Shown here in pieces: positions 1,461-47,057 of a stretch of 64,000 nt of DNA. The stretch comes from Candidatus Fermentithermobacillaceae bacterium (GTDB lineage: Bacteria; Bacillota; Sulfobacillia; Fermentithermobacillales; Fermentithermobacillaceae): positions 26,421 to 90,420 of the forward strand of contig DULO01000031.1 in NCBI GenBank assembly GCA_012840345.1, read 5' to 3'. The translations under genes and the position numbers were made by a program. Positions within the stretch are counted from its first letter, which is position 1. Each line of letters opens with the position of its first letter. The notes below the pieces were generated by a model. It was not told the DNA's origin, made no database searches, and worked only from the letters and a program-made list of their open reading frames with translations.

Positions 1461-1487
1461 CTCGCCTTCTGTGGTAGTCTCGCCGGT

Positions 1488-2447: not shown

Positions 2448-2478
2448 GAAAGGCTAAGCCGTGTTTCGCTGACAGGCG

Positions 2479-2519
2479 GGAAGGCGACGGGAGGCGGGTT
2501 CCCCCTCCTATCGCCTTCC
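2479..2519. terminator. Long imperfect hairpin between convergent genes (putative bidirectional terminator)
   Basis: GGAAGGCGACGGGAGG-cgggttccc-CCTCCTATCGCCTTCC, a 16-bp stem with 2 mismatches. It lies between the pspC-domain gene (+) and the barrel-protein gene (-), with a T-rich stretch downstream on the plus strand. Confidence 0.4.
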
Positions 2520-2524
2520 GGCCT

Positions 2525-6916: not shown

Positions 6917-7610
6917 TCAGGACCTTCCTCTCGACGATCTCGCCGTCGGACAGGCGGATAAGCGTATCCGCGTAGTCCAAAAAACCGTCCTCGTGGGTAA
7001 CCACCACAAAGGTCTGTCCTTCCTCTTGGTTGAAGCGCTTAAACAGCTTCATTATCTCCTGGGACATCTTTGAATCCAGGTTTCCGGTAGGTTCGTCGGC
7101 CAGCACGATGGAAGGCCTGGGAGCCAGCGCCCGGGCTATGGCGACTCTCTGCTGCTCACCGCCGCTAAGCTCCACCGGGTAATGGTTCGCCCGGGCCGTC
7201 AACCCGGTAACCTCAAGAAGATGCATGACCCGGGACATGATGTCCCGCTCGTCCATCCGGGCTAGCCTCATGGGCATTCCGATGTTCTCGGCCGCGGTAA
7301 GTTCGGGCAAGAGGTTGAAGAACTGGAACACGATCCCCAACTCGCGGCGCCTCATCACCGCCAGGTCGTCCTCGCTCATTCTGGAGTACTTTCGGCCGTT
7401 TAGGAGGACCTCCCCGTGGGTGGGCCGGTCTATTCCGCCGAGTATGTTCAAGAGAGTGCTCTTGCCTGACCCGGACGGACCCATGATGACGACGAACTGT
7501 CCCCTCTCCACCTCAAGCTCTACGTTGGACAAGGCGAACAAGCCGTCGCCTACTGCATAGAACTTCGAGAGTTCGTGGCACGCGAGGATGGGTCCATGCC
7601 ATTCATTCAC
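6903..7610 (-). CDS. ABC transporter ATP-binding protein (MacB/LolD-type)
   Basis: 235 aa with Walker A GPSGSGKST, the LSGGEQQRVAIARAL signature and Walker B IVLADEPTGNLD. Confidence 0.85.
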   Translation of the reverse strand: MNEWHGPILACHELSKFYAVGDGLFALSNVELEVERGQFVVIMGPSGSGKSTLLNILGGIDRPTHGEVLLNGRKYSRMSEDDLAVMRRRELGIVFQFFNLLPELTAAENIGMPMRLARMDERDIMSRVMHLLEVTGLTARANHYPVELSGGEQQRVAIARALAPRPSIVLADEPTGNLDSKMSQEIMKLFKRFNQEEGQTFVVVTHEDGFLDYADTLIRLSDGEIVERKVLNAKK

Positions 7611-9069
7611 GCTTCAACACCTCCGCGCTGGGAACCCGCGCCGCCCACAGACCTACCGCCGTACCCAGGGCCAACGATATTCCCAAAGACATGCCGAAGA
7701 CCGAGATGAAGTCTATGAACGTAAGTTTGATCCACTCGGCGGCCGTAATCTCTGAGGCCAAGAGCGACCACAACGAAAGGACTTTTGCCGCTAAGAACCC
7801 TATGGCTGCTCCCGCGGCCGCGACGTATCCGACAATAGTCAGCACGTAGACCACGACATCTTTGCCTGTGGCGCCAATAACCCGTAAGAGGCCTATCTTT
7901 CTCTTCTGCTGGACCAGCATGATGTAGGAACTCCCGGCCACGATAACGCCGGAAAGCATAAAACCCTGAACCTGAAGAAGCCCGCCGGCGTCGAGCCCTT
8001 GGAACCTAAGAGCTGACCCCGATACCTGGAGTTTCTTGAGTTCAGGCACGGGGCAGACCTGAAAACCTTCTCCCAACTTCTCTTGAATCCCGGACGCTAT
8101 CGCCTTTGCCTCGGACATGCGGTCAACCGATATCAGGAGCTCATAGGTAGGCAGTTGGTTCAAATCCACAGCCGCCTGGGTTTGAGCCAGGATCTCCTGA
8201 AACGTCTCTTTGGTAACGAAAACCTCCGGCCTATCCCAAAAGCGCGCCTCTTCGCCGGGTGCCGGGAACTCGGGCAAAGCGGTGGCATCAGGTTCCAGTA
8301 CCTGGTTGGTGTTCACCCGGTACTTGCCGGATACTTCAAGCACAACCGAAGCCCCGTTGTCCCAATCCAGCCCGAGCCCGAAAGCACCCCCAACAAGTCG
8401 CGCGGGGTCTTTGGAAGAAGGCGCGGGGTTCACGACCAACCGCGGCACTCGAACCGGAACAGACGAGCCTACGAGGTTGTACTCAAGTCCTCCGAAGTTA
8501 GGGAAGAGAGCCTCCATTCCGGAGCCGGCCGCAGGCCCAGGATACTCGCCTTCCACGATGAAGCGGGCCATAGAAAGGGGAAAGCTCTCAGCATCCAAAG
8601 CGTCTCTCGCTCTTAGAATGGCCTGGACCGAACCCACCAAGCACGGCAAGGATACATAAGGTTCGACACGGGTTACGCCGGGGACGTCTTTGATCAGGTC
8701 CATTACTTCGCGTGGGTCAAAGGCGCGCCAACCTAAAGACCCTTCCGATATATAGCCTTCTTGAGAAAGCCGGTGAAAGTAGTAGAGCGCGTGGGACTGC
8801 CAATCCCGTCCCTCCCACGGTTTCACAGTGAGGTTTGCGCCGTTTCGGGACTCTACCCGGCTTGACAGTGGCAAGACGACCAGGTCGCCTCCGATAAACG
8901 CCCTTTCCGCCTGGCCAACGCCCCACGGATAACCCCGGGGGATCATGTGGGACACAACAAGCATCCACGCGGCAAGAGCGGTCGCGGCCAAAGCGACGCC
9001 GGTCCTGGTCCAGTTTCGCTTTATCTCGTTTCTGCCGAGGCGGATTAGGTCCAAAGCCCCACCCTCCAA
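7603..9069 (-). CDS. ABC transporter permease, FtsX/MacB-like with large extracytoplasmic domain
   Basis: 488 aa. TTG start. N-terminal TM, a ~300-aa extracytoplasmic domain and C-terminal LLRVIGATGKDVVVYVLTIVGYV...FtsX-type helices. Confidence 0.7.
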   Translation of the reverse strand: MEGGALDLIRLGRNEIKRNWTRTGVALAATALAAWMLVVSHMIPRGYPWGVGQAERAFIGGDLVVLPLSSRVESRNGANLTVKPWEGRDWQSHALYYFHRLSQEGYISEGSLGWRAFDPREVMDLIKDVPGVTRVEPYVSLPCLVGSVQAILRARDALDAESFPLSMARFIVEGEYPGPAAGSGMEALFPNFGGLEYNLVGSSVPVRVPRLVVNPAPSSKDPARLVGGAFGLGLDWDNGASVVLEVSGKYRVNTNQVLEPDATALPEFPAPGEEARFWDRPEVFVTKETFQEILAQTQAAVDLNQLPTYELLISVDRMSEAKAIASGIQEKLGEGFQVCPVPELKKLQVSGSALRFQGLDAGGLLQVQGFMLSGVIVAGSSYIMLVQQKRKIGLLRVIGATGKDVVVYVLTIVGYVAAAGAAIGFLAAKVLSLWSLLASEITAAEWIKLTFIDFISVFGMSLGISLALGTAVGLWAARVPSAEVLKRE

Positions 9070-11247: not shown

Positions 11248-12405
11248 CTAACCCCGGTCTCTCAGAAGGATATTTGATACGGGAACCAAGAGCGTCTCAC
11301 CGGTTTCCGTCGCCACCTTAGCCCCCGGTAACAGGAGGTCGTTTTCGAGCTTCAACTCAGGCAGGATCTCCACCACCGTGCCTTCTTTCACGGCGGTTGT
11401 GAGGCCTAGGACGCTGACCCTGTCCCCAAGTCCGAGCTCTCCCAGGCGGCATACGGGTTTTTCGGCCTCCTTGGCGACGGCTCCGCCGTTCAGCGGGATG
11501 ACGACCGCGGGCTCATCCGACCCGTTTCCGCCTCCGTCTATGTAGACCGGGTTGCCCTCGCTCTCGGCCAAAAGGGCGAACGCTTCGCCGCCCATGGGCG
11601 AGTCTCCATAGCCCTCGGTTACCACCAATGCCGGTACAATCTCGCTGGGAGAAGGCTCCAAATCCCGGTTCTTGGCGTCCCTTGCCCAATATCTGGCCAG
11701 GAACTCGTCCCAGTCCAAAGACCCTGCAAGGTCCGAGTACCACTCAAATAACCCGCGGCTCACGCTGCCCGCGATGATGCCGGAAACCCTGAACCTTAGG
11801 CAAGCTTCTAGGACTTCTTTGGACACGGAACGGCCGGCAACTATCACTTTCCCCGCGTCGTCCGCCGTGAAGTCCCTGGCGCTTAACTTGTCCGACGGAG
11901 TCTTCGCCTTCATGGAAAGCACCCCCGCCCGACCGTAGCCGGCACCAACAGAAGCCTTAACCAGGTTGCCGTACGTTCTGACCCACACTCCCCTGGCTTC
12001 GTCGGTTTTCTCGACGATTCCGGGAAGGCGGCAATACAAGCTCACCGGCGCTTCCTTGATGGCAATCGAGCCTATGGAAGGAATGAGGGCTACCACTTCC
12101 CCATCACAAGGCGCTGTGTACTCGGTGTATCCCAGCCCAAAGAAGTATGAGTAGTACGCCAGCACCTCGCCGCGCTTTACCTTTTGGCCTTCTTGGACCA
12201 GAACCGTCGCCGAAAAACCTTCTCCCGACGATTCCACCCTGACTTGCCTGAGCCTTCTCCGAGAAGCGTACGTGCCTGCTAGTGTATCCCACGTGACCTC
12301 CGACCCGACGTCTACTTGGGGCTCGCCGATGGAACCAAAGGCCCTTAAGCGCACAATTGGGGTATTGCGGGCAACTCGGGGTTCGTTGAGGGCGTAAAGC
12401 GTCAT
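11248..12405 (-). CDS. Hypothetical cytosolic hybrid-barrel protein (paralog B of 2525..3937)
   Basis: 385 aa with VKRGEVLAYY...YTAPCDGEVVALI, ALVVTEGYGDSPMGGEAFALLAE and C-terminal LGDRVSVLGL...GTVVEILPEL. These blocks are colinear with paralog A. Its start overlaps the stop of the upstream GlmL-like gene (ATGA), and its stop abuts the XRE-TPR start. Confidence 0.6.
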   Translation of the reverse strand: MTLYALNEPRVARNTPIVRLRAFGSIGEPQVDVGSEVTWDTLAGTYASRRRLRQVRVESSGEGFSATVLVQEGQKVKRGEVLAYYSYFFGLGYTEYTAPCDGEVVALIPSIGSIAIKEAPVSLYCRLPGIVEKTDEARGVWVRTYGNLVKASVGAGYGRAGVLSMKAKTPSDKLSARDFTADDAGKVIVAGRSVSKEVLEACLRFRVSGIIAGSVSRGLFEWYSDLAGSLDWDEFLARYWARDAKNRDLEPSPSEIVPALVVTEGYGDSPMGGEAFALLAESEGNPVYIDGGGNGSDEPAVVIPLNGGAVAKEAEKPVCRLGELGLGDRVSVLGLTTAVKEGTVVEILPELKLENDLLLPGAKVATETGETLLVPVSNILLRDRG

Positions 12406-14132
12406 TGACCTCTCCCCCTCTCCCAGCCTGATAGAACTTGCTCGGGGAAGACGCCAAGGTTCCTGTACCAGCCTATGATTTCACGGGGAGAGATTCTCTC
12501 CAGGGTTCTAAGCTGCGGCCTGGGGCGTCCGTCCACATAAATCCGGGAAAAGCCGGGCGGAAGATCCCGCACGGTCTTTCGTCCGGGTCCCTCGCCCAAG
12601 TCTTCTTGGCGTGAAGGGTCCAACGTGATTTCCACGGCGGAACCATTTGCGATGGGAACTAACGTTATCTCGCCCATACTCACGGGCAGCTGCTCGTACG
12701 TCCCGTCCAATCTCGCCGAGGCCCATCCCGCGCCGACGCGGTCTCTGTCTTCGCCGGGGGCGACCAGGACGGCCAGAGGCAAGAGACTCTCCAGTATGTT
12801 TGCGCTTCCGGAAGGAAGCAGGCCGGCTACCTGCAGCGCGTTGCAAGTATCAAGGTAGACGCCCACGCCTCCCGCGACCTGCGCGCCGTCCATAACCAAA
12901 GACAGGACCGCTTCCCGGGAAAGGACCCGGGACAGGACGCCGGTCACGACTATCCGCCTCAAGGTAGGCATCTTCAAGAGCGTATCCCCGCCCGAGACTT
13001 CCACTTGGAAAGTCTCCCCTACCTGTCTTTGCCGGTGCACGCCGCGAAGTTCTATGGCGGTGGCCTTATGCTCGGCGATACCTTCCCTTATGGCTTCTTT
13101 CCAAACCGCGAGAAAGACCGATAACTCGTTCCAAGTGGTGGGCAAAACGTGCGGCCGGAGTACCAGGTTGCCTATGAAATCGCCCAGGTTTTCCGCCATT
13201 TGAGGGTGAGGAAGCCATTTGGCCACTTTGTTGGGGTTTACCTTGGCGACCGGGGTCACGGTTCTGGTGAACACTCCCTTGATGCCGGAGAAGACCTGCA
13301 CCGCGTCGCCGTCCAGGGACAGGCCCAAGACGTTCTCGCCCGTTTCCTCGTAGAGCCCCTCGAAAGCAAGGCCCGCCGCGTACCCCGACGGGAAGACTTC
13401 CGGCAAACCCAGCTTGCCTAGACCTTGGAACTTAGGGTCAGAGCGCACGTTTTCCGAAAACGAGCCTACGACCGCGTCGCGCGCTGAAGCTAAGTGCTCT
13501 TCCTCGAGCTTTGCCCTAACGTTGTCGGCCCAGATTATCTCGATATCCCCCAGGATCCTGGCCACTTCCTCCCGGGCTTCTTGAGAACCCGCGTAGACCA
13601 GGGGAATCCTGTCATCGCTCCATCCTTTCTTGGGCAACCCTTTGGCTAGGACTCTGGCGATGTTGAGGATCTGATGGGTTCCGGACTCCATAATTTCCTC
13701 GTCTACCCCGCCGGCCATGACGGCGACGGACACATCCTGGCGGCGCAAGTCCGAAATCCTCTCGAAATCCTGGCGGCCGTCATCGACGCAAACCAGATCG
13801 GTCACAGTGGCGCCGGCCAACAAAGCGGCTCTCTTGGCGGATTCCCCCGAGATGCCCTTGACTACTCCCGCGCATACCGCCTTGGGTTCCCCGCCTGCGC
13901 TAAGGGTCACCATGACGCCTTCATTCTCGTAAGAGGACTTGTCCTCTGACATTCGGGATCCGATGACGTCCAGTACCTCGCCCAACCCCAAAGTTCGTTC
14001 ATCTTTGCTCGCCGGCGGCGGAGTGGGACAGGAAACGCGCTCTAGCTGGACAATCCTGCCGCCCTCGATAGCCAGGGCGCGGGCTTCGGTAACCGTACTG
14101 CCTACGTCTATATGAAAGATACTCTTGGTCAT
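12402..14132 (-). CDS. GlmL/MutL-family (EutA-like) ASKHA-fold protein, paralog B
   Basis: The start is ATG MTKSIFHIDVGSTVTEARALA at 14132. This was chosen over the listed longer ORF because the ATG sits 1 nt after the upstream ATPase stop. ~576 aa, same family motifs as paralog A. Confidence 0.65.
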   Translation of the reverse strand: MTKSIFHIDVGSTVTEARALAIEGGRIVQLERVSCPTPPPASKDERTLGLGEVLDVIGSRMSEDKSSYENEGVMVTLSAGGEPKAVCAGVVKGISGESAKRAALLAGATVTDLVCVDDGRQDFERISDLRRQDVSVAVMAGGVDEEIMESGTHQILNIARVLAKGLPKKGWSDDRIPLVYAGSQEAREEVARILGDIEIIWADNVRAKLEEEHLASARDAVVGSFSENVRSDPKFQGLGKLGLPEVFPSGYAAGLAFEGLYEETGENVLGLSLDGDAVQVFSGIKGVFTRTVTPVAKVNPNKVAKWLPHPQMAENLGDFIGNLVLRPHVLPTTWNELSVFLAVWKEAIREGIAEHKATAIELRGVHRQRQVGETFQVEVSGGDTLLKMPTLRRIVVTGVLSRVLSREAVLSLVMDGAQVAGGVGVYLDTCNALQVAGLLPSGSANILESLLPLAVLVAPGEDRDRVGAGWASARLDGTYEQLPVSMGEITLVPIANGSAVEITLDPSRQEDLGEGPGRKTVRDLPPGFSRIYVDGRPRPQLRTLERISPREIIGWYRNLGVFPEQVLSGWERGRGQ

Positions 14133-14133
14133 C

Positions 14134-14838
14134 TCAGCCCTCCCGTGCCATTCCTCCGTCGTATACGCGGGTGATGCGCCCGTCGAGCATCTCCACAACC
14201 CGGTGCGCCCACCTGGTGATCGAAGGATCATGTGAAACCACGACAAAGGTCTGGCCTCTTTCTACATTGAGTCTGTGGAAGATCTCGCCGATCTCCGACG
14301 AAGTCTTGGAGTCCAGATTCCCGGTTGGCTCGTCGGCCAGCACTATCGCGGGTTGGTTGGCCAAGGCCCTGGCGATAGCCACTCGCTGCTGCTCCCCTCC
14401 GGATAGCTCTAAAGGCTTGTGATCTTGCCTTTGGCCTAGGCCTACTTGAACCAAGAGCTCTCTCGCCCGTTCAGTCATGGCCTTCTTGCTCATTCCGCCA
14501 AACCTCATGGGCAACATCACGTTCTCGAGCGCTGTGAAGTGGGCTATGAGGTTAAAGAACTGGAACACGAACCCGACCTTGTTCCGCCTGATCCGGGCCA
14601 GACCGCTTTCGGAAAGCTGGGAGTATCTCTGGCCGTCCAGGATGACATCCCCGCTCTGGGGCCTGTCTAACCCTCCCAAGAGCCCAAGGAGCGTGCTCTT
14701 GCCGCTGCCCGAGGGGCCCATCAAAACGATGAATTCGCCGCGGTCCACTACCAGGTTCACGTCGTTGACCGCGTAGATTGTCTGTCCCAAGTGAAAGGAT
14801 TTCTTGAGGTTCACTGTCCTCAGGATAGGCTCATCCAA
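14134..14838 (-). CDS. ABC transporter ATP-binding protein (MacB/LolD-type), second copy
   Basis: 234 aa with GPSGSGKST, LSGGEQQRVAIARAL and IVLADEPTGNLD. It is a paralog of 6903..7610. Confidence 0.85.
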   Translation of the reverse strand: MDEPILRTVNLKKSFHLGQTIYAVNDVNLVVDRGEFIVLMGPSGSGKSTLLGLLGGLDRPQSGDVILDGQRYSQLSESGLARIRRNKVGFVFQFFNLIAHFTALENVMLPMRFGGMSKKAMTERARELLVQVGLGQRQDHKPLELSGGEQQRVAIARALANQPAIVLADEPTGNLDSKTSSEIGEIFHRLNVERGQTFVVVSHDPSITRWAHRVVEMLDGRITRVYDGGMAREG

Positions 14839-36399: not shown

Positions 36400-37734
36400 C
36401 TACGACAGCCCCAATGACTTCGCTTTCTCGTCAATAGCGTCTTGAAGCGTAGGCCGGCCGATCTCCTGAAGTTCGTAGCGGACCCTGGTCCAGGGTTTGT
36501 CTATTTTGGCTATCCTGCTCAAGTCTATGGGCGTGGCCACTACTACCCCATCGCAAGGCGTCTTCCGGATCGTCTCTTCCAGGTCCCTCACTTGCCCCTC
36601 TCCGTATCCCATAGCAGGCAGCAAAGTGCCGATCCTGGGATAAGTCCGGTATGTTTCCAAGATGCTCTTTACGGCGTACTCCCTGGGATCCACCAGTGAT
36701 TCCGCTCTGTAACGTTTGGCGGCGACCACACCCGCGCCAAAGGTCATCTCCCCGTGGGTAAGCGTTGGCCCGTCCTCAATGACCAGCACTTTCTTTCCTC
36801 TGATAACCTCGGGGTTATCCACGAAAATGGGCGAAGCGGCTTCTACCACGATGGCGTCGGGATTAAGGGAATCGATGCTTTCCCTGACTCTCTCCACCCC
36901 GTCGGGCGACGCGGTGTCGACCTTGTTTATTACGATGATGTCAGCCATGCGCAGGTTAGTCTCGCCCGGATGGTAACGCTCCTCGTGTCCCGGGCGGTGA
37001 GGATCGACCAGTACGATGTGAATGTCGGGACGGTAGAACGGTATGTCGTTGTTGCCGCCGTCCCACAAGATGATATCGGACTCAGCTTCCACTCCCCGGA
37101 GTATCCGCTCGTAGTCGACTCCCGCCCATACGACCAGCCCCCGGTCAACTATGGGTTCGTACTCCTCTCGTTCCTCGATGGTGCACTTGTGGATGTCCAT
37201 GTCTTCATAGGTGGCGAATCTCTCCGCGGCTTGAGCCAGAAGGTCCCCGTAAGGCATAGGATGGCGGACGACCCCCACCTTACGGTTCTTGGAGACCAGG
37301 ATATCGGCGACCCTCCGGGTGGTCTGGCTTTTGCCAACACCGGTTCTCACGGCGGTCACCGCGATGACCGGCTTAGTCGACTTCAGCATGGTAGTCTTCG
37401 GGCCCATGATGCGGAAGTCGGCGCCGGCTGCCGCGCACATTGAAGCCTTGTGCATCACGTACTCGTGGGGTACGTCGCTGTACGCGAAGACTACCTCGTC
37501 AACATCATGGGAAGCGATTAGCCGGGGGAGGTCCGCTTCCGGGTAAATGGGAATGCCGTCCTCGTAACCGGGACCCGCCAGTTCCGGAGGGTACCTGCGC
37601 CCCGCTATGTCCGGGATTTGGGCCGCCGTGAAAAACAACACCCTGTAGTCAGGGTTCCCGCGGAAATACACGTTGAAGTTGTGGAAGTCCCTGCCTGCCG
37701 CCCCCATGATCGCGACCTTTTTGGGGTTCCCCAC
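36400..37734 (-). CDS. Cyclic 2,3-diphosphoglycerate synthetase-like (BioD/CobQ-like deviant-Walker-A ATPase) protein, paralog 1
   Basis: 444 aa. GTG start 7 nt after GGAGGA. Deviant P-loop AVTAVRTGVGKSQTT and ILWDGGNND motifs. ~70% identical to the 39917..41239 product. Confidence 0.6.
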   Translation of the reverse strand: MGNPKKVAIMGAAGRDFHNFNVYFRGNPDYRVLFFTAAQIPDIAGRRYPPELAGPGYEDGIPIYPEADLPRLIASHDVDEVVFAYSDVPHEYVMHKASMCAAAGADFRIMGPKTTMLKSTKPVIAVTAVRTGVGKSQTTRRVADILVSKNRKVGVVRHPMPYGDLLAQAAERFATYEDMDIHKCTIEEREEYEPIVDRGLVVWAGVDYERILRGVEAESDIILWDGGNNDIPFYRPDIHIVLVDPHRPGHEERYHPGETNLRMADIIVINKVDTASPDGVERVRESIDSLNPDAIVVEAASPIFVDNPEVIRGKKVLVIEDGPTLTHGEMTFGAGVVAAKRYRAESLVDPREYAVKSILETYRTYPRIGTLLPAMGYGEGQVRDLEETIRKTPCDGVVVATPIDLSRIAKIDKPWTRVRYELQEIGRPTLQDAIDEKAKSLGLS

Positions 37735-37759: not shown

Positions 37760-39748
37760 CTAACTGACCGCCCTCGTCTCTTCTGTCCTCGGGGTCTTGA
37801 CCCAGGCCTTGGGTTCTTTCCCCATAGACTTCAACACCAGCGCGCTGGTATATGGCACAGGGAACATGAACGCCGCCAAAGGCAAAAGGAACAATCCCAT
37901 GTAGACACAGAACCTGCCCAACCAGGAGTTGGGACAGCAGCTGTTGTCAAGATGAGCGCTGTACCTGCGAAACGCGTAGAAAGTGAACCCGAGATAGATG
38001 GCGGAAAACCCGCTCAGCATCCACTGTCCCGCCGCCGGCACAAGAGTGGCGTCCATAAGGTCCTGGTGGTGCAACACCATGGCTATTGGCGGCACAAAGG
38101 TGGCCAGTTGGTACAGGACCCACTCCAGCTGGCCCTTGATAATGAGACTCAGGCGCAGCCGTCGTTGGGCTGATCTCTCCACATCCTTATAGGTTAGGAC
38201 CTTGTCGACCACCTGAAGATGTCCGGTGCCCCACCTAAGCCTCTGGCGAAAGAAGGCTTTAAAAGTCGGAGGTGTCTGCTCTGATGACGAATAAGGAAGG
38301 TATTCGGGCCAGGCTCCTCTCAAGAGATAAGCTCTCGTCCCGAACTCAAGGTCTTCTGTGAGTACGTGACAGTCCCACCCTCCTACCTCTCTTAAGAGGT
38401 CGTGAGCTATGAAGACGTTGGTCCCGCCGACAAAAGGCAAGGTGCGGAACAGCCAAGGAAGGTACCAATCGTGGGCGACGGCCTGATACAGGGCGGCAAT
38501 GCGGCAGAAGGGCGTCATCTGGTAGAAGTTCCTTACCTGGAACACGGGGCCTTGCAAGACTCTTGACTTCTCGGGGTCCATCATTCTCCTGTAGCCCACA
38601 TATAGAAGGACATCCTTATGAGGCCTGCTCTCCGCGTCGTAGAACCCGACGACTTCGGTCCTGGGGTCCAGGTAGTTGATTCCCCAGTTCAAAGCCCTAC
38701 CCTTGGTGGACGGTACCGGTCTTCCCGTCTTTTTTCCGTTGAGAGCGCCGTCAAAGTCGTAGGGCACGACCACGTGCCTCACGGCCGGAACGCCTGGTTT
38801 TTGGGCGGCTTCCGAGGCGACTCTGTCCACCACTTCTTGGGTGGTAGGGTATAGATCCAAGAGAGCGTGGCGTATCTTATCCCGTATTTCGCCCGTCCTA
38901 GACGCCTTGCGGACGGCTTGGCACACCCGTTTGGCTATCAAGTCGGTCATCCGCCGGATGATGTCTTGAGTCAGGTCATGGTTCGCCTTGATTGTGTGCT
39001 GAATGGTCCTCCTTAAGATCTTCCGGCTCGATTCGTCGCAGATCTCGGAGTACGCCGCTATGACCGGCACGGCTACCGCCAAGCAAGCGGGATACAGCCT
39101 CTCGATGTCCAGTTCGGAAAGCCACGGACAAGTCTTTTTCAGTATGCCCTTGAGCCTCCCCGCCTGAGGGGCCCCGTGAGAAGCGAGTATGGCGATGCTG
39201 ATGCCTCTCACCACGGCGTGGCGTTCGAGCCCGGGAAGCAGATAGAGCTCGGACGCTCCCGACGGGTAGTCTTTTTGAAAGCCTTTGGACAGGTATTCCC
39301 TCAACGCGTACTCGGAGAGGCAGGATACTATAACGGCCCGGAGTTCCACCTCGTGTCTTGACCGGACTCCTTCCCTTTCCCCCGACAAGATCTCCACGGC
39401 CAAAGCCTCCAAGGCTTTACGGTCTTCTTGAGCCGCCAGGATCTCTTTTTCGTCGGTCACCACCATGACTTCGTAACGGCCTTGCGGGTACCGCAAGGAA
39501 AGCAAATGGTTGATTGTGTTTTCAATGACCAGGGATTCGTTTCGGGCCGGGACCATGATGCTGATAAAAGGAACGGGCCTACCCAGTGAAGCCGCCGTCT
39601 CTTCTATGAAGGCGGGCTTTAGAGTCGGCTTCCTATTCCAGTACTTTCGTTCGCTGTAGTGCTTCCAGACCAGAAACCTGGCAAATAACAAAAAGAACAC
39701 AAGATAAACCGCGTACGCGACGAGGTACAGAGTCTGGGCGGGCGTCAT
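37760..39748 (-). CDS. Processive family-2 glycosyltransferase (membrane, QxxRW type) with large insertion
   Basis: N-terminal TM, SIMVPARNES GT-A motif, DAE(D) motifs, QRLRWGTG and C-terminal TM helices. The start is placed at ATG MTPAQTLY (39748), because the listed TTG at 39844 lies inside the upstream terminator's U-tract. Confidence 0.75.
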   Translation of the reverse strand: MTPAQTLYLVAYAVYLVFFLLFARFLVWKHYSERKYWNRKPTLKPAFIEETAASLGRPVPFISIMVPARNESLVIENTINHLLSLRYPQGRYEVMVVTDEKEILAAQEDRKALEALAVEILSGEREGVRSRHEVELRAVIVSCLSEYALREYLSKGFQKDYPSGASELYLLPGLERHAVVRGISIAILASHGAPQAGRLKGILKKTCPWLSELDIERLYPACLAVAVPVIAAYSEICDESSRKILRRTIQHTIKANHDLTQDIIRRMTDLIAKRVCQAVRKASRTGEIRDKIRHALLDLYPTTQEVVDRVASEAAQKPGVPAVRHVVVPYDFDGALNGKKTGRPVPSTKGRALNWGINYLDPRTEVVGFYDAESRPHKDVLLYVGYRRMMDPEKSRVLQGPVFQVRNFYQMTPFCRIAALYQAVAHDWYLPWLFRTLPFVGGTNVFIAHDLLREVGGWDCHVLTEDLEFGTRAYLLRGAWPEYLPYSSSEQTPPTFKAFFRQRLRWGTGHLQVVDKVLTYKDVERSAQRRLRLSLIIKGQLEWVLYQLATFVPPIAMVLHHQDLMDATLVPAAGQWMLSGFSAIYLGFTFYAFRRYSAHLDNSCCPNSWLGRFCVYMGLFLLPLAAFMFPVPYTSALVLKSMGKEPKAWVKTPRTEETRAVS

Positions 39749-39839
39749 GATGTCGGCTTCCACTCCCTTGTCGGTTAACGCTTTCTGTGCCCAACCAGTA
39801 TTGTTGCGCTTGCCGGATGGGGCTATGCGCCAGCGTAAC

Positions 39840-39873
39840 CTCAAAAGGAAAGCGGTCCCTGTTCGGGACCGCT
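39840..39873 (-). terminator. Rho-independent terminator downstream of cpgS-like paralog 2
   Basis: Minus strand: GCGGTCCC-gaaca-GGGACCGC, a perfect 8-bp stem, followed by TTTCCTTTTGAGG. Confidence 0.6.
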
Positions 39874-39916: not shown

Positions 39917-41239
39917 TTAGAGGACGCCTCCCACCGCTTCTATGGCTTCTTTGAGCGTAGGAGTCCCCACCTCTTGAAGTTCATACCGCACGCGCATTGA
40001 CGGCTTGTCGATCTTCATGATCCGCCGCAAGTCTATTGGGGTTGCCACAAGCACTAGGTCACACGGGGTGCGCGCCACCGTCTCTTCCAGTTCCGACACC
40101 TGTTTGGGTGAGTACCCCATTGCCGGAAGCACGGGTCCCAGGTGGCTGTACTTCTCGAAAGTGCGGGCAATGCTGCCTACGCTGTACGGCCGCGGGTCAA
40201 CCAGTTCCAGCGCTCCCCACTTCCGCGCTGCCATAACGCCGGCCCCGTAAGCCATCTCGCCGTGGGTGAGAGTCGGGCCGTCTTCTATGACCAGCACCCG
40301 CTTGCCTGTGATTTCCTGTCCCCTCTCAGGGAACACGGGGGAAGCGGCTTCGACTATTATGGCCTTGGGATTAAGTTTCCTGACGTTGTCCCTGACCGCG
40401 TCCACATTGGCCTTGTCCGCCGTGTCTATCTTGTTGATCACCACTATGTCGGCCATGCGAAGGTTGGTCTCACCGGGATGGTACGAAACCTCGTGCCCGG
40501 GCCTGTGCGGGTCAACCAACACTATGTGACAGTCTGACTTATAGAACGGGATGTCGTTGTTGCCGCCATCCCAGAGGATCACCTGGGATTCTTCCTCCGC
40601 ACGCTTTAGTATTTCGCCGTAGTCAACCCCGGCGTACACAATAATCCCGCGGTCGATGTGGGGTTCGTATTCTTCCCGCTCTTCGATGGTGCACTCGTGA
40701 AGATCCAGGTCCGCGTAGGTTTCGAACCGCTGGCAAGCCTGCTTAGCCAAGTCTCCGTAGGGCATTGGGTGGCGAATAGCGGCCACTTTTTTCCCTGAAG
40801 CGCGCAGGAGCTCCGCGACTTTCCTGGTGGTCTGGCTCTTACCCACGCCCGTTCGCACGGCGCAGACCGAAATCACCGGGTTCCTCGATTTTATGGCGGT
40901 CGCGTTGTACCCGATGAGTTTGAAATCGGCTCCCGCGGAAAGAACTATGGACGCTTTGTGCATAACGTCCACGTGGCTTATGTCGCTGTAGGAAAAGACA
41001 ACTTCATCGACCTTGTGCTTTACTATGAGGTCCGGCAGTTCTTCCTCCGGGTAAATGGGGATGCCGTCTGGGTACCGCTCTCCCGCCAATTCGGGAGGAT
41101 AGCGCCTTCCCTCAATGTTAGGTATTTGCGTGGCGGTGAAGCAGACGACTTCGCTTTGGGGATCGTTCCTGTAAACCGTGTTGAAGTTGTGGAAATCCCT
41201 GCCCGCTGCCCCCATAATGATGACCTTCTTGGCACACAT
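39917..41239 (-). CDS. Cyclic 2,3-diphosphoglycerate synthetase-like protein, paralog 2
   Basis: The start is ATG MCAKKVIIMGAAG at 41239 with a GGAGGAGGAG RBS, colinear with paralog 1. Same P-loop and DGGNND motifs. Confidence 0.6.
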   Translation of the reverse strand: MCAKKVIIMGAAGRDFHNFNTVYRNDPQSEVVCFTATQIPNIEGRRYPPELAGERYPDGIPIYPEEELPDLIVKHKVDEVVFSYSDISHVDVMHKASIVLSAGADFKLIGYNATAIKSRNPVISVCAVRTGVGKSQTTRKVAELLRASGKKVAAIRHPMPYGDLAKQACQRFETYADLDLHECTIEEREEYEPHIDRGIIVYAGVDYGEILKRAEEESQVILWDGGNNDIPFYKSDCHIVLVDPHRPGHEVSYHPGETNLRMADIVVINKIDTADKANVDAVRDNVRKLNPKAIIVEAASPVFPERGQEITGKRVLVIEDGPTLTHGEMAYGAGVMAARKWGALELVDPRPYSVGSIARTFEKYSHLGPVLPAMGYSPKQVSELEETVARTPCDLVLVATPIDLRRIMKIDKPSMRVRYELQEVGTPTLKEAIEAVGGVL

Positions 41240-41277
41240 GAGAAACGCTCCTCCTCCGGTTATACTGGTCTTTTCTC

Positions 41278-42309
41278 CTATCGCGCCCAAACCTCTCCCA
41301 CTATTTCAAGAGGTCTCCGGCACTTGGGACACGCCTTACCGTCCAGGTAAGATGCTTCCAGCTCCATTCCTCCCCGTTCCAGCAAGAGTTCTCCGCATTT
41401 CGGGCACCTCGTGTCCGCGTAACCTGTTTTCCAAGCGTTGCCTATGTAAACATAGTGAAGGTTTCTAAGAGCCACTTCCCTAAGCCTCTCCAAAGTCTCC
41501 GTGGGCGTCACCTGCTCTCGCGACTTGTAGGCGGGAAAGTATCTAGATAGGTGCAAGGGTATGGCGGGGCTCAGGGAACCAAGCCAGCCGGACAGGCCCT
41601 CCATGTCTTCGTCTCTATCGTTCTGGCCGGGTATGACCAGACACGTTACCTCCACCCAAGCACCGTACCTGACGGCGCGTTCCACGGTCTTCTTCACGGG
41701 CTCTAAGCGGCCTCCCGCCAGATCGCGGTAGAAATCCTCATCCCAAGCCTTCACGTCTATGTTGAAGGCGCCTACAAGCGGCAGGACCTCTTCCAGAGCC
41801 TTTGGGGAAATGAACCCGTTGGTTACCATGACGTTCAGAAGCCCCTGTTCGTTTGCCAAACGGGCGGAATCAAGAACAAACTCCAGCCCAACCGTGGGTT
41901 CGTTGTAGGTGTAGGCTATCCCCACCACCCGCCGGTCCGCCTGCCTCCTTTGGGACGCGCAAAGCACGATTTCCTCAGGCTCAAACACCTCACAGTAAGG
42001 CCGGGCCTGGGATATCTGCCAGTTTTGACAAAACTCGCACCGGAAGTTGCACCCGAAAGACCCTACCGATAGCAGCATCCCCCCGGGATGGACGTGAAAG
42101 AGGGGTTTTTTCTCTACCGGGTCTAAGGCCAGCGACGTAACCGCCCCGTAATTCCGGCTTACCAGCTTCCCGTCCAGGTTTTGCCTGACCCTGCAAATGC
42201 CGTACTTGCCGGGCGGGATTACGCAGCCGTGGGGGCAAAGCTCGCAGGCCACCTTGCCTCCCTCTTGGCTCCGGTAAAACCTGGCCTCAGTCGACGGCAA
42301 GCTATCCAT
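41278..42309 (-). CDS. AmmeMemoRadiSam-system-type radical SAM enzyme (PFL-activase-like)
   Basis: 343 aa with CNFRCEFC (CxxxCxxC) radical-SAM cluster motif, an N-terminal CELCPHGC and a C-terminal CPKCG...CPKC zinc-ribbon. Confidence 0.8.
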   Translation of the reverse strand: MDSLPSTEARFYRSQEGGKVACELCPHGCVIPPGKYGICRVRQNLDGKLVSRNYGAVTSLALDPVEKKPLFHVHPGGMLLSVGSFGCNFRCEFCQNWQISQARPYCEVFEPEEIVLCASQRRQADRRVVGIAYTYNEPTVGLEFVLDSARLANEQGLLNVMVTNGFISPKALEEVLPLVGAFNIDVKAWDEDFYRDLAGGRLEPVKKTVERAVRYGAWVEVTCLVIPGQNDRDEDMEGLSGWLGSLSPAIPLHLSRYFPAYKSREQVTPTETLERLREVALRNLHYVYIGNAWKTGYADTRCPKCGELLLERGGMELEASYLDGKACPKCRRPLEIVGEVWAR

Positions 42310-42322: not shown

Positions 42323-43735
42323 TCAATGGTATCTGGTTACTTTGAAACGATACAGCCTTACGTCCTTCTCCCTCTCACCTATGCCGGCCTTGCGCTTGGC
42401 GATGGAGACTTGTTCCTCCACCGTGTTGACGCCTGGCAAGTCGGGCAGCAGCAGGCCTCTGCGCCGTCCCTTTTCACAGATAACCCCATATACCTTAGGG
42501 TCAAGGTCCGAGAGAGACTCGACGGGCTCGGAAGGCGAAAGAACGTCCACAGAGTAGTCCAGGTAGTCCAACTCGGAAGAGTCTACCGGTTCGAACCTCG
42601 GGTCCCTCGCGGCCGCGCTGACGGCGTTGGATATGATCTCCGCCGCCAAGCTGGACGTGGTGGCCTCCGTGGTCCCAATGCACCCTCGAAGGTCTCCCTC
42701 TTTATGGATGGATACGAAGACCCCGCCCCGCTCCAGGAACTCAGCGGGCACATCCTTGGGAACTCCTATGATCCTGCCCGTCTTTACGTACTCCTCCACC
42801 GCCTTTCTCGCCAGGGAGACGGGATAGGACTCGCCGCTCCGGATGGAGTTCATACGTTCCTGGCGCTTGCGGTTGATCTCATCCAAACGGGGGGCCTTGA
42901 GTTCTCCCTTTGGAGTAAACAGGGCCACCGAGTACCCTACCCCGAAAGGTCCTTCGTAAGACAGGACCTGGGACGAAACCTCCACGCGGTCCAAGATGCC
43001 CAGCATGAGGGCGATGGGCCTGAGCCCGCATTCGCCCGCCTCTTCTATCAGGTCTTTGGGCAGCGTCAGTATCTTGGAAGGCTCGAAGTCTCTTAGCAGG
43101 TTTATCAGTTCCCGGTCGAAGACCTCGCCCTTGGGGCTGTACCCCGCGGGAGCATCACGAGTAAGCCTGTGGGACAGATCGCCTGAGCACAACACGGCCA
43201 CCCGGCGTCCCAAGCTCCGGCATGCCCGCTCCACGGCTATGCCCGCTCTGTAAAGGTCCAGAAGGGAAAGGAACCCGATGTTGAGCACTACCATACGCCC
43301 GGCAAAGCCCTTTCGCGCAAGGAAACTCACGGGCACGACGACCCCGTGGTCGAGACGGTCGCCTATCATGTACCGGGAGCGTGTATTCCTGTCCAACAGG
43401 ACGGCCGGGGTGCTAGGGTCTTTGGAGAGCTCCCGAACTAACGCGGAAGCCAGGTCGGAGTCGTTTAGGTAGCGTACGCGGACTTCGGGGGCTCCGAACC
43501 CCGACAGGTCCCCGATAAGCTCCGCTTCATCCCTCACCGACAGGGCATCTCTGAATACCGGGCCGTGGGGGGTGATGACCAACAGGGTTTCAGGTCCGGC
43601 GTCTATGAAGGCGGAAGCGAGCCGGTCCATTGCCCGTCGCGTAGCCAGAACCTTTCTCTCTTCGCCGCGCCCCACCTCGGGGAGCAATATCGCCGGATGC
43701 GGGGCCAGTCCGCACAAGACCACGCTTGTCGTCAC
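42323..43735 (-). CDS. Fusion protein: class-III extradiol-dioxygenase-like (Memo/LigB superfamily) domain + AMMECR1 domain (AmmeMemoRadiSam proteins B+A)
   Basis: A GTG start 2 nt after the racemase stop, with an AAGGTGG RBS. N-terminal CGLAPHPAILLPE...ITPHGPVF...SGDLSHRL (LigB/Memo-like). C-terminal RGCIGT...DPRF (AMMECR1). Confidence 0.7.
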   Translation of the reverse strand: MTTSVVLCGLAPHPAILLPEVGRGEERKVLATRRAMDRLASAFIDAGPETLLVITPHGPVFRDALSVRDEAELIGDLSGFGAPEVRVRYLNDSDLASALVRELSKDPSTPAVLLDRNTRSRYMIGDRLDHGVVVPVSFLARKGFAGRMVVLNIGFLSLLDLYRAGIAVERACRSLGRRVAVLCSGDLSHRLTRDAPAGYSPKGEVFDRELINLLRDFEPSKILTLPKDLIEEAGECGLRPIALMLGILDRVEVSSQVLSYEGPFGVGYSVALFTPKGELKAPRLDEINRKRQERMNSIRSGESYPVSLARKAVEEYVKTGRIIGVPKDVPAEFLERGGVFVSIHKEGDLRGCIGTTEATTSSLAAEIISNAVSAAARDPRFEPVDSSELDYLDYSVDVLSPSEPVESLSDLDPKVYGVICEKGRRRGLLLPDLPGVNTVEEQVSIAKRKAGIGEREKDVRLYRFKVTRYH

Positions 43736-43736
43736 G

Positions 43737-44801
43737 TCAGCGCACCACCTTTTCCACAAATGGAGACGTCGCCGCCTGCAAAAGGGAACTGTAAGCGGGG
43801 ATGAACCGCAGCATTGAGCCAACCTTCACATCCCCCGCGTCCTGAACGTCCAAAATGAGATGGTCTGAAGACGCTCCTAATACCTGCACTCCCGGTTCCA
43901 GAGGGGTCAGCCCGTCAGGATCTATGTCCTGCCGTCCCGCGGCACAGATGGCTCTCTTGCGGATTCCCCGGTCTGGAAAAGTAACCACGAGACCGAAAGC
44001 GTTTTGCCCGACCTGTCCTTCCGGTTTTGAGGGCTTGGTTTGGACTTCTATGACTTCCGCGACTATGGTAAAGGCGTCTGGGTAACACCCGGGGACAGGA
44101 GACCTATGGACCGCTTCCGTCCCCAAAAGCACGCTTTCGCCTATGCGGAGTTCGGTTATCCCCGCGGGCATCTCCTTGTTCATCACCAGGGGCATGTTGG
44201 CCGAATTGCCGCCTGACACGGTTTCCAGCTTTAGTCCTAGGCTCGACTCGATATCGTCCCTTACTTTGAGCAATGCCTCCATCTTCTCCCGGGTCGGGAT
44301 TACCCCGCCGTAGCAAGCCAGGTTCACCCCGATACCCGCCAGCTTCACGCCGTCTTCTGAGCTCATGGCTTTGGCGGTTTCCACTGCCTTGTGGACGGGA
44401 ACTCCCTCCCGGAGGTCTCCCAGGTCCACCATGAGTACCACCTTGTGGGTCCTGTTTGCCTTCCTCGCCGCCTTGGCCAGCATCCTGACGACTTCCACTT
44501 CAGAGTTTAGGCTCACGTCGGCGACCGCTACCGCTTCGTCCACTCGGCTGGGCGCCGGGGACCTCAGGAGCACCGTTTCCCCCGCGTATCCGCCCTCTCT
44601 TGCCCTGGCGAGGTTCTCAACCCGGGAATCAGCTATAGCGGCGGCACCGCCCTCAACCATGGCCTTCACAACCGCGGGGTGACCCAGTACGGACTTGGGA
44701 ACGCCGACCAGCCTCATGCCCAACTCGCCCAGCATAGACGACACCACGCGGGTGTTGTGCCTGATTTTGGCCGTGTCGATAACCAATGCAGGTAGCTTCA
44801 T
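43737..44801 (-). CDS. PLP-dependent alanine-racemase-fold protein (ornithine racemase / YhfX-like)
   Basis: 354 aa, N-terminal TIM-barrel PLP domain (VLGHPAVVKAMVEGGAAAIADSRVENL...VVLMVDLGDLREG) and a C-terminal beta domain. Confidence 0.7.
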   Translation of the reverse strand: MKLPALVIDTAKIRHNTRVVSSMLGELGMRLVGVPKSVLGHPAVVKAMVEGGAAAIADSRVENLARAREGGYAGETVLLRSPAPSRVDEAVAVADVSLNSEVEVVRMLAKAARKANRTHKVVLMVDLGDLREGVPVHKAVETAKAMSSEDGVKLAGIGVNLACYGGVIPTREKMEALLKVRDDIESSLGLKLETVSGGNSANMPLVMNKEMPAGITELRIGESVLLGTEAVHRSPVPGCYPDAFTIVAEVIEVQTKPSKPEGQVGQNAFGLVVTFPDRGIRKRAICAAGRQDIDPDGLTPLEPGVQVLGASSDHLILDVQDAGDVKVGSMLRFIPAYSSLLQAATSPFVEKVVR

Positions 44802-46144
44802 TAGACCAACCCCAGACTTGTCTTTAGAATTGTCATGGCCTCACTCGGCTTTTCTCTGGAAAGCACGCCGCATGCCGCCATGATGTAGTCCTTGTCTATA
44901 AGGATGCGGGCGTCTTTCGGGTAAAGCTCCCTTCCGGCGCCCTGCCCGATCAGTCTCTTCAGTATCTCTTCCCCGCCTGGAAGCCTGGTTAGGGCCCCGC
45001 CTGTTCCGATGATCGTTCCTACGCTAGATAGGTCTTTCCCGCTTGCGACGGCCTGTCTGCCCGACGGCCCGTAAAGATACCGGATTCTGCCGGCGTGCCG
45101 CGAAAACGCGATCTCGCAGGCGGCCTTGGTAAGATACGACACCAAGCGGGATTCACGATCCGAGGGTATCACGCTGAGTTTGTCCAAAAGAGGCTCGGGA
45201 TCAAAGCCAAGCTCAAGAACTGCTCTATCCTTCACTTCTTCATAGACGTTCTTGGCGTTGATGAACACTCCCAAGTCCCCTTCAACGGTCCGTTTGGCCA
45301 AGGGCTCAGGGTTCTCCAGGATGGCCTGGATTTCGGGGCTCCCTTTTGCCACCGAGTGAACGTCGGTCGTGGCGCCGCCCACGTCGAGAGCGCACAAGTC
45401 TCCCAAATCCTCCCACAAGACCTTACACGCTTCCATAACGGCGCCGGGCGTCGGCATTATGGGCCCGTCCACCATTTCCCTGATAGTATCCATCCCCGGG
45501 GCTTTGGTAATGTGCTCCTCAAACGCCGCCTGTATCACCTTTCTGGCGGGCTCCACCACCAGTTCGTCAACTCGCGGAAATACGTTTTCAACAAAGTACA
45601 CCTTGCCCCCGTGGTCCTTGAGGATGTCCGCCACTTCCTGCCTGGCGGCTATATTGCCGGCGTAGATGATTGGGACATCGGGCAGAACTTCGTGAAGCAC
45701 CCTCGCGTTATGCAAGGCGGTAGATTTCTCGCCGTAATCCACCCCTCCGGCCAAGAGCGCTATCTTGGGCTTCACCTTCTGAAGACGCAGAGCGTCGGAC
45801 GAGGTCATCTCGCCGGCGGTTATGAATCTAATCACCGCTCCCGCTCCCAACGCCGCTTCCTTGGCGGCCCTGACGGTCATGTCGTATACCAGGCCGTGGA
45901 CGCTCATGGAAAGCCCTCCGGCCGCGCTGGAAACCGCCATCATGCGGTCGTAGTCCAGCGAACCGGCGCCAAGGGACTCCTTTAGCCGGTCCAAAGCCTT
46001 GCGCAGCCCTAGAGTGACGTCTCCTTGGGCGACAGTGGTCTCCGACACCCCCTGCCCAAGAAACCGCGGGTCTTTCGAAAGGTCAAAAGCGTTCACTACT
46101 GTGGTTGTGCTGCCGATCTCGGCGACCAATGCATGGACTTTCAT
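44801..46144 (-). CDS. Glutamate mutase L (GlmL/MutL)-family ASKHA protein, paralog C
   Basis: 447 aa with N-terminal ALVAEIGSTTTVVNAF and ALDVGGATTDVHSV, the length and motifs of the GlmL family. The preceding RBS is AAGGAGAGG. Confidence 0.75.
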   Translation of the reverse strand: MKVHALVAEIGSTTTVVNAFDLSKDPRFLGQGVSETTVAQGDVTLGLRKALDRLKESLGAGSLDYDRMMAVSSAAGGLSMSVHGLVYDMTVRAAKEAALGAGAVIRFITAGEMTSSDALRLQKVKPKIALLAGGVDYGEKSTALHNARVLHEVLPDVPIIYAGNIAARQEVADILKDHGGKVYFVENVFPRVDELVVEPARKVIQAAFEEHITKAPGMDTIREMVDGPIMPTPGAVMEACKVLWEDLGDLCALDVGGATTDVHSVAKGSPEIQAILENPEPLAKRTVEGDLGVFINAKNVYEEVKDRAVLELGFDPEPLLDKLSVIPSDRESRLVSYLTKAACEIAFSRHAGRIRYLYGPSGRQAVASGKDLSSVGTIIGTGGALTRLPGGEEILKRLIGQGAGRELYPKDARILIDKDYIMAACGVLSREKPSEAMTILKTSLGLV

Positions 46145-46310
46145 TATCGCGACTCCCGCCTCTCCTTAAGCCGCTATTAGCATCAAAACCTCCACCCTCA
46201 TGCATTCTTGCATGAGAGGTGAATTCCTGCCAAAATAAGGGCTCTTAAGGCGTCGCGGGGTTTTCGCGGGTTCGTGGGGTAACCGGACGTTGGGTTAACA
46301 TGGCTCTATA

Positions 46311-47057
46311 CTAGCTGGACGAGTGGACGAAAGAAATGACGGCTTGCCTTATGCATTCCGCAAGCTTCTGTTGGTAAGCGGGCGAACCCAGAAGGGCCTC
46401 CTCCTCAGGGTTTGATAGAAATCCCAGTTCCACGGTGGCCGCGGGGACGTTCCCATAGTTCAACATGAAATGGTCGAGGCGGGCCGAGTGTTCCCTGTCG
46501 GTATCCGTCTCTTTTCTGAGGATTTCTTGGATTAGCCTTGCCAGCTTCTCGGAGTCAGGGTGCTTCTTGGCGTTGTAGAACGTCTGTGCCCCTCTTTCCC
46601 TCGGATCGGTGAACGCGTTGCAGTGGAGAGACAGCACTATGGTGGCCCCTGAGGAGTCGATAAGGCGCTGCCTGGCGGTAACGTCGTCGATTTCGTCGGA
46701 TTCCAGGTCGTAATCTCCCGTGCGGGAGTATACGACCTTGGCCCCGCTCTTCTCCAGCCTGACCCCCAGGTACAAAGCCACGTTCAGGGCTATGTCTTTC
46801 TCGAGGTACCGGCTTCCGCAGGCCCCGGGATCGATCCCGCCGTGGCCGGGGTCTATGTATATAACCTGACCCTCCAGGGGTTTGGTGGTATCCGCCGGCT
46901 CTCCGGCCGAGATCACTCCCCGTTCAATGAGAAACGGGCGTGAAGCGGCGTAGGCGACCAACGCCAGCGCCAGAGACACGGCCACGGACAGTACAGTGTT
47001 CTTATGGACAATAACAAAAAGGGGCCGGCCGGTTTGCCTGCCCCTTCTTCTCGCCAT
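46311..47057 (-). CDS. cwlD: N-acetylmuramoyl-L-alanine amidase, CwlD-like (germination-specific)
   Basis: 248 aa with a signal anchor and Amidase_3 motifs (IYIDPGHGG...LSLHCNA...E). Its position after rplM-rpsI matches Bacillus. Confidence 0.8.
   Translation of the reverse strand: MARRRGRQTGRPLFVIVHKNTVLSVAVSLALALVAYAASRPFLIERGVISAGEPADTTKPLEGQVIYIDPGHGGIDPGACGSRYLEKDIALNVALYLGVRLEKSGAKVVYSRTGDYDLESDEIDDVTARQRLIDSSGATIVLSLHCNAFTDPRERGAQTFYNAKKHPDSEKLARLIQEILRKETDTDREHSARLDHFMLNYGNVPAATVELGFLSNPEEEALLGSPAYQQKLAECIRQAVISFVHSSS

Follow-up and report, generated by a model that had tools for sequence, protein, structure and literature searches.

The window analysed here is a stretch of 64,000 nucleotides (64 kb) of contig DULO01000031.1 from a Candidatus Fermentithermobacillaceae bacterium, and this report concerns two adjoining minus-strand genes within it, or4 (44801..46144) and orr (43737..44801), together with the promoter region in front of them. 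The gene or4 is intact and encodes a 447-aa ATPase of the GlmL/MutL family with an ASKHA (actin/Hsp70-like) fold; orr encodes a 354-aa protein predicted to be a pyridoxal 5'-phosphate (PLP)-dependent ornithine racemase, with Lys36 and the pair Cys163-Tyr164. Upstream of or4 lie its leader and ribosome-binding site (46145..46190, minus strand), a palindrome able to fold into a hairpin (46191..46223) and a putative SigH-type promoter (46204..46228, minus strand). A sequence-only reading of this DNA had identified the two proteins as GlmL/MutL-type and as having the ornithine/alanine racemase fold, had noted that their genes overlap by 1 nt and had seen in them an unusual stand-alone reactivase-racemase pairing. 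The identities and the overlap are borne out, the shared base lying in TAATG, but synteny points to the remnant of an ord-ortAB-oraSE-or4-orr operon at this exact site. The relatives and loci compared with the window are labelled L001-L111, and the Bacillota clade concerned comprises Candidatus Fermentithermobacillaceae and unclassified relatives, of anaerobic-digester origin.

Or-4 matches Pfam PF13941 (MutL) with 520 bits and passes the NCBIfam model NF040744, 'GlmL-related ornithine degradation protein Or-4', with 632.1 bits over residues 4-444 (cut-off 600), and it fails the GlmL model NF040745 (391.5 bits, cut-off 475). The protein agrees with the consensus at 132 of 132 conserved columns, defined here and below as at least 97% conserved, among 115 homologs, and it keeps the phosphate-binding motifs E9-I-G-S-T-T-T15, D254-x-G-G-A-T-x-D261 and G380-T-G-G383. 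Its identity to the Or-4 proteins of full operons is 68-73%, and no Or-4 of 73-100% identity to it was found among 5.8 billion proteins. When its AlphaFold2 model (predicted local distance difference test score 86, predicted template modelling score 0.84) was searched with Foldseek, every match was an ASKHA ATPase, including acetone carboxylase beta subunit/hydantoinase, DnaK, PilM, FtsA and, at rank 44, DdrA, with template modelling (TM) scores of 0.2-0.43. A fold similarity specific to reactivases was rejected, since DnaK, FtsA and PilM rank at least as well as DdrA; the name 'reactivase' would thus be drawn from gene context, the fold search giving the general ASKHA class only. To our knowledge, reactivase activity has been shown for no Or-4 or GlmL.

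The racemase belongs to Pfam PF01168 (Ala_racemase_N); among the NCBIfam models it matches NF040742, 'ornithine racemase Orr', best, but with 395.6 bits it stays below the cut-off of 480. Racemases within complete seven-gene clusters score equally low (381-418 bits), so the sub-cut-off score is no argument against orthology, the cut-off excluding the whole clade. The catalytic residues are K36 in VPKS, the lysine of the PLP Schiff base, and C163-Y164 in NLACYGG, both in conserved columns, and the protein agrees with all 70 conserved columns among 116 homologs; its homologs in all number in the thousands. The Lys/Cys acid-base pair of ornithine racemase is defined in PMC13397332. Orr is 59-66% identical to the racemases of L003, L012 and L014-L018, which occupy the same slot between or4 and a Memo/AMMECR1 gene and fall in the same tree group. 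By orthology the window racemase therefore appears to be a canonical Orr, a finding that the sequence-only reading had itself named as one that would speak against its proposal.

Of the seven genes of a complete L-ornithine degradation operon, the window holds or4 and orr alone, a set that cannot by itself sustain the pathway. Searching the whole window by tblastn with the Ord, OrtA, OrtB, OraS and OraE proteins of a relative gave no hit at E<=1e-3, and Pfam scans of 40 large open reading frames between 0.9 and 48.7 kb detected no B12-mutase domains, Met_asp_mut_E and B12-binding included. The remaining part, 48-64 kb, was assigned by synteny to a ribosomal-protein/ecf cluster. The absence of oraS and oraE from the window, which the sequence-only reading had reported, is thereby upheld, and so is that of glmS and glmE, neither of which was detected by the Pfam scans and the 48-64 kb synteny, no tblastn search having been aimed at them.

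The site is occupied by the full operon in relatives. Its upstream boundary in the window is a cwlD-like gene (46311..47057, minus strand) encoding an N-acetylmuramoyl-L-alanine amidase (Pfam Amidase_3, 152 bits; NCBIfam spore_cwlD, 170 bits, below the cut-off), which comes after rplM-rpsI, as it does in all relatives. In L003, a Bacillota metagenome-assembled genome whose Orr is 66% identical to that of the window, the same flanks enclose ord-ortA-ortB-oraS-oraE-or4-orr; between the window and L003, protein identity is 57-85% for the flanks, 68% for Or-4 and 65% for Orr. The seven-gene operon also lies between cwlD and Memo/AMMECR1 in L012, and it stands at the same site in all of the clade's species representatives that the genome scan yielded (L014-L019, L027 and L028), several of which carry the label Candidatus Fermentithermobacillaceae. 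The downstream order is conserved in these full-operon relatives as orr, Memo/AMMECR1, a radical SAM gene, a cobW-like gene here called p440 and a family-2 glycosyltransferase gene (GT2). The sequence of L013 begins inside oraE and continues into or4-orr, and Propionibacteriaceae have the same seven genes in the same order in a different neighbourhood. The best matches by scan were 66% identical for Orr (genome scan) and 69% for Or-4 (metagenome scan).

Outside the window species, the same association was seen whenever or4 could be evaluated. An oraE gene lies directly 5' of or4 in 14 of 14 or4-bearing loci from the genome scan, and in 71 of 80 loci from a metagenome scan with the window Or-4; eight more loci were too short, and in the last, L070, oraE is frameshifted. 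When L070 is counted, or4 adjoins oraE in 86 of 86 other evaluable loci (14 genome, 72 metagenome), while the window or4 is preceded by cwlD instead. Orphan or4 is confined to the species of the window, in which contigs of three independent metagenome assemblies (ENA ERZ795102, ENA ERZ27245374 and JGI 3300010267) carry cwlD-or4-orr at 99.9% DNA identity, each with an identical set of three single-nucleotide polymorphisms (SNPs) relative to the window. The species occurs in SRR33282639 as well. As a separate observation, L070 (JMBV01001621.1) has an oraE (19..892) and an orr (2410..3385) that both seem frameshifted beside an intact or4, and might be a low-quality contig or another decaying operon copy.

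The 166-nt spacer between cwlD and or4 links the window directly to the intact operons. Its segment GGCAGGAATTCACCTCTCATGCAAGAATGCATGAGG aligns with the region upstream of ord, which reads GCAGGATTTTCCTTTATATGCAAGAATGCATAAGG in L003 and GGAAGGAATTATCCTCCTATGCAAGAATGTATAAC in L012, so the 5' control region of the operon would have been retained and would now stand directly before or4. We consider it likely, from these comparisons of gene order and sequence, that or4-orr is the 3' remnant of the canonical ord-ortA-ortB-oraS-oraE-or4-orr operon, from which five genes have been removed here. In the lineage of the window, about 5.4 kb comprising ord, ortA, ortB, oraS and oraE would have been lost from the site, with the junction in the or4 leader or at the or4 start codon, and the palindrome-wrapped promoter region of SigH type would thereby have been fused directly to or4. 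Transcription may still start at the retained promoter and run through or4, orr, the Memo/AMMECR1 and radical SAM genes and beyond, and a presumed reliance of the downstream genes on this promoter would explain why every deletion derivative keeps it. In L003, the 579-nt spacer before ord was also seen to hold two sets of tandem repeats (about 2690..3040), one of CACTGACTCACTGC-like units and one in which a unit of about 33 nt (GATGATGAAAGCTACCAATCC...) recurs about six times.

The relatives with the racemases closest to that of the window have gone further. In L001/L002 (Orr 81% identical) and L010/L011 (76%), the order is cwlD-orr-Memo/AMMECR1, without or4, and about 20 nt of the 3' end of or4 can still be recognised before the orr start codon (GTCTGGGGTTGGTTTCATG, compared with GTCTGGGGTTGGTCTAATG in the window). 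In neighbour-joining trees, both of the flanking proteins and of Orr, the window groups with L001 and L010, and the full-operon L012 is the sister of this clade. The clade thus appears, from gene content and these trees, to be a deletion series running from the full operon through or4 with orr to orr alone.

Among the window, L001 and L010, three lineages without a local oraSE, the proportion of nonsynonymous differences (pN) in orr is 0.115-0.162 and that of synonymous differences (pS) is 0.62-0.78, the latter being saturated; for L001 against L010, which lack both local oraSE and or4, the values are 0.162 and 0.776. Such low pN where oraSE and or4 are gone shows the racemase to be kept by strong purifying selection without a neighbouring aminomutase. 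Given this conservation, Orr would still be an ornithine racemase, with a role that is independent of a local aminomutase. Or-4 in intact operons is presumed to assist the B12/PLP aminomutase OraSE in an ATP-dependent way, as an accessory protein or chaperone, and in the window it has no evident partner. Its rate was not accelerated relative to the flanking genes (Tajima-type lineage-specific counts, Fisher p = 0.13-0.69), and its pN is 0.204 to L012 and 0.223 to L003, the pair of full operons also giving 0.223. For a ratio of nonsynonymous to synonymous substitution rates (dN/dS) in or4, the strain variants of the window species offer three SNPs only, and synonymous sites are saturated in all the other comparisons. 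Were or4 drifting neutrally, we estimate that at most about 2% amino-acid change is possible, given that 132 near-invariant positions are untouched; their integrity leaves two readings, a very recent deletion or continuing selection on or4. We lean, by a narrow preference, towards Or-4 being an idle leftover of a recent deletion that has not yet decayed, and hold it rather less probable that it still serves an aminomutase encoded elsewhere.

The latter possibility is part of a wider alternative, which we regard as doubtful but serious, in which the operon was split: ord-ortAB-oraSE would have been relocated and expressed from another locus, and Or-4 and Orr would serve ornithine fermentation in trans. 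The complete set of conserved positions in Or-4 and its unaccelerated rate fit such a split, as does the palindrome, which is perfect in the window and degraded in the orr-only relatives. Moreover, a relative of L003, L111 (Logan DRR066659, 1..4289), has ortB-oraS-oraE, with an OraE 90% identical to that of L003, and no or4 or orr, oraE being followed by a terminator-like hairpin with a T-run and then by an unrelated membrane-protein gene; this arrangement is the mirror image of the truncation in the window. On the other side, the nearest relatives have lost or4 outright, which suggests a subclade that is abandoning the pathway, and or4 keeps to oraE at every other locus counted above. A search with the L012 OraE, in which three hits of unclear context were looked up, gave none from samples holding the window species; OraE is 79-85% conserved across the family and hits are not assignable to a lineage, so that this is weak negative evidence.

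Several of these points, and some others, weigh against a simple loss of the five genes as we prefer to read it. The absence of ord to oraE is established for the 64-kb window, and relocation and loss are both compatible with it. An intact Or-4 and a perfect palindrome are as compatible with continued use as with a recent deletion, and L111 indicates that separated operon halves exist. The role of Or-4 as an accessory of OraSE would come from annotation, the model-based fold search indicating the ASKHA class only. The breakpoint cannot be mapped to the base, because the leaders past the palindrome are too diverged: the best local alignment of the or4 leader with the ord leader of L012 has a shuffle p of 0.08, and leader comparisons overall range from 0.08 to 0.67. 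Finally, the two trees disagree on how the window, L001 and L010 branch within their clade, and the window deletion and the larger deletion in L001 and L010 may have been sequential or independent.

The sequence-only reading had also described an inverted repeat at 46197..46216 and taken it for an operator. The repeat, CTCATGCA-TTCT-TGCATGAG, is real and is the sole match in the window at up to two mismatches (0.01 expected), with perfect arms of 8 bp, not 7, and a distance of 52 nt from the or4 start codon; the larger hairpin around it has 14 pairs with one bulge and a folding energy of -20.2 kcal/mol. Overlapping it is AGGAATT (-35), 14 nt and GAAT (-10), the last being shared between the loop and the right arm. 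The pattern AGGAWTT-N14-GAAT occurs once in the 64 kb, at this site (0.06 expected), and its AGGA and GAAT are spaced as in the SigH motif of Bacillota, which is AGGA, 17-18 nt, GAAT (PMC12456013). Among 12 aligned elements, the -35 box begins AGGA or AGGG in 12 and the -10 box is GAAT in 11 (GAAC in L014), with a gap of 14-15 nt; the -35 box is AGGGTTT in L015, AGGATGT in L016-type loci and otherwise AGGAWTT. We would therefore identify AGGAATT-N14-GAAT, by its motif and alignment, as a SigH-type promoter homologous to the element before ord in full-operon relatives. A sigma-70 scan also calls TTGGCA-18-AAGAAT at this element. Two other identities were tried and set aside: an ArgR box for the palindrome, which on inspection has its half-sites in everted form, as ATTCA-N4-TGAAT where TGAAT-N4-ATTCA would be required, and shows a G/T variation at odds with such a box, and a sigma-54 promoter in the window, where TGGCAG-N..-CACC lacks the GC at -12. 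Rfam gave no match at E<=1 in 45900..46600, and no terminator-like site was found between cwlD and or4.

An operator role of the palindrome, with an ornithine-responsive repressor or activator binding to it, is a tentative idea, which we find unlikely in that form. The element is conserved 5' of ord in relatives and overlaps the -10 region, and its arms change symmetrically (G..C for T..A, C..G for T..A), as in ATGCA/TGCAT against ATTCA/TGAAT and in outer T..A against the C..G of the window, which has the longest version of the palindrome. Of the six inner pairs, full-operon relatives retain 5-6 and orr-only relatives 2; the latter still have both promoter boxes but have lost the left arm, so that the palindrome is degraded where orr alone remains. 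Against an operator, it is the SigH-type -35 and -10 boxes that are invariant and not the arms, no regulator gene is adjacent, and with about seven independent lineages the covariation is no more than suggestive. Moreover, in L016, L017 and L028 the element precedes the cobW-like p440, following an inserted M20 peptidase gene on the minus strand, and ord has a sigma-54 promoter of its own (TGGCACGGAATATGCTT) together with a divergent activator of PAS-Sigma54_activat-HTH_8 architecture. In L016 the activator lies at 1201..2793 (minus strand) and the sigma-54 promoter at about 2900..2970, with the same arrangement in L017 and L028 and none elsewhere. The position before p440, which is not an ornithine gene, argues against an ornithine-specific operator. 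Thus, of the operator proposal, the conservation and the covarying arms stand, while the core is better taken as a promoter; we read the element, from where it occurs among the relatives, as a probable promoter of a long co-directional gene block.

An autonomous module, in which Or-4 would have, newly acquired or from the outset, a function independent of any aminomutase, for example by acting with ATP on Orr or on the Memo/AMMECR1-radical SAM pair as their chaperone or activase, in a SigH-driven stationary-phase or sporulation unit, seems to us improbable. Or-4 is intact, the four genes or4, orr, Memo/AMMECR1 and radical SAM are tightly packed behind one promoter, and two distant GlmL/MutL-family paralogs in the window stand in non-B12 contexts, so the superfamily is not limited to B12 mutases. 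Nevertheless, sister lineages keep orr-Memo/AMMECR1-radical SAM without or4, so that none of these genes needs Or-4, the Or-4 subfamily is otherwise always beside oraE, and there is no sign of changed constraint on Or-4. If Or-4 did have such a job, the four genes would form a SigH-controlled unit built around D-ornithine and would provide a first functional handle on the GlmL/Or-4 family and on the AmmeMemoRadiSam system. An assembly artefact or chimeric contig joining cwlD to or4 can be dismissed for practical purposes, the same junction being present in the three metagenome assemblies and the GC content being even across the junction and the surrounding region.

The genes around the pair are all on the minus strand. 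Upstream are ecf transporter genes, truA, rplM, rpsI and the cwlD-like gene; downstream of orr follow a LigB(Memo)-AMMECR1 fusion gene, the radical SAM gene, a cobW-like gene, the family-2 glycosyltransferase gene, a second cobW-like gene and a gene for a NYN-domain protein. The fusion gene (42323..43735, minus strand; Pfam LigB and AMMECR1, TIGR04335), whose start at 43735 was set by tblastn, begins 1 nt past the orr stop codon, lies 3' of orr in every relative of the clade, the orr-only ones included, and is probably on the same transcript as orr. It is followed by the gene for the radical SAM enzyme of the AmmeMemoRadiSam system (41278..42309, minus strand; TIGR04337, 292 bits, cut-off 220). 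The two cobW-like paralogs (39917..41290 and 36400..37734, both minus strand) encode proteins of about 440-457 aa with a faint cobW/HypB GTPase match only; they are about 64-65% identical to each other's orthologs and bracket the GT2 gene (37760..39844), which encodes a 694-aa family-2 glycosyltransferase, and the clade as a whole shares this arrangement.

Between the radical SAM gene and p440, some relatives carry a gene for ornithine carbamoyltransferase (L001 13631..14473, L003 13635..14564, L014 13547..14473), which is absent at that slot from the window (41290/41278), L012, L013, L018 and L027; a second ornithine-related gene is thus variably present at the locus. Elsewhere in the window, two further PF13941 (MutL/GlmL-family) proteins of 598 aa (3954..5750, minus strand; 389 bits) and 614 aa (12402..14246, minus strand; 130 bits) score far under the GlmL and Or-4 cut-offs. 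Each of their genes is followed by one for a barrel-sandwich-hybrid protein (biotin-lipoyl/RnfC_N-like), with genes for ATP-binding cassette ATPases flanking (neighbours at 2525..3937, 5768..9069, 11248..12405 and 14134..14838), and FtsX-type permease genes (5768..6916 and 7603..9069) separate the two sets, which are a non-B12 context for the family.

Taken as a truncated operon, the or4-orr pair is not a new module; it is gene loss half-way and not a new system. What looked like an orphan B12 reactivase would be explained as part of a textbook amino-acid fermentation operon from which the rest has gone. The racemase has been retained under purifying selection after loss of the rest of the pathway, which suggests that these bacteria put D-ornithine, or the enzyme itself, to a second physiological use. 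An or4 that is intact yet orphaned offers a natural test case for whether Or-4/GlmL proteins have any function apart from a mutase. In addition, a SigH-type promoter set in a palindrome, together with a sub-lineage that has switched to sigma-54 control, may serve as a compact example of promoter replacement.

Compared with known systems, the promoter element resembles the SigH (Spo0H) promoters of Bacillota in its AGGA, 17-18 nt, GAAT structure (PMC12456013), conserved in 12 homologous elements, and differs from them in being wrapped in a palindrome that lies outside the SigH consensus. Or-4 shares the ASKHA-type fold with DdrA, the large subunit of the diol/glycerol dehydratase reactivase (PDB 2d0o; Foldseek rank 44) and an ATPase that services a B12 enzyme, but the match is no better than those to DnaK, FtsA, PilM and the acetone carboxylase beta subunit (TM 0.2-0.43). 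With GlmL (MutL) of glutamate mutase (NF040745/TIGR01319), it shares PF13941, the ASKHA fold and a length of about 450 aa; in contrast to GlmL, it scores 391 against the cut-off of 475 and passes the Or-4 model, and no glmS/glmE was detected in the window within the scans described above. The L-ornithine oxidative degradation pathway is described in PMC8803604, and its gene cluster in Clostridium sticklandii and Clostridioides difficile is given as orr, oraS, oraE, ord, ortA and ortB (Fonknechten et al. 2009, as reported in PMC13397332). The window or4 and orr are orthologous to the last two genes of that cluster, whereas the site lacks five of the seven, among them the dehydrogenase, the thiolase and the two subunits of the aminomutase. 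A stand-alone ornithine racemase (OrnR) without an aminomutase is known from Salmonella, where STM2358 has a D-ornithine/D-lysine decarboxylase as its partner (Phillips et al. 2025, PMC13397332). Unlike it, the window orr has no decarboxylase or transporter partner and is followed by Memo/AMMECR1 and radical SAM genes, and unlike OrnR/Orr the window racemase and its whole clade fall below the cut-off of the NCBIfam Orr model. Nevertheless, the window racemase has in common with the OrnR/Orr of C. sticklandii and Salmonella that it is a fold-type III PLP enzyme, with Lys36 and with Cys-Tyr at positions 163-164 replacing the acid/base Tyr of alanine racemase.

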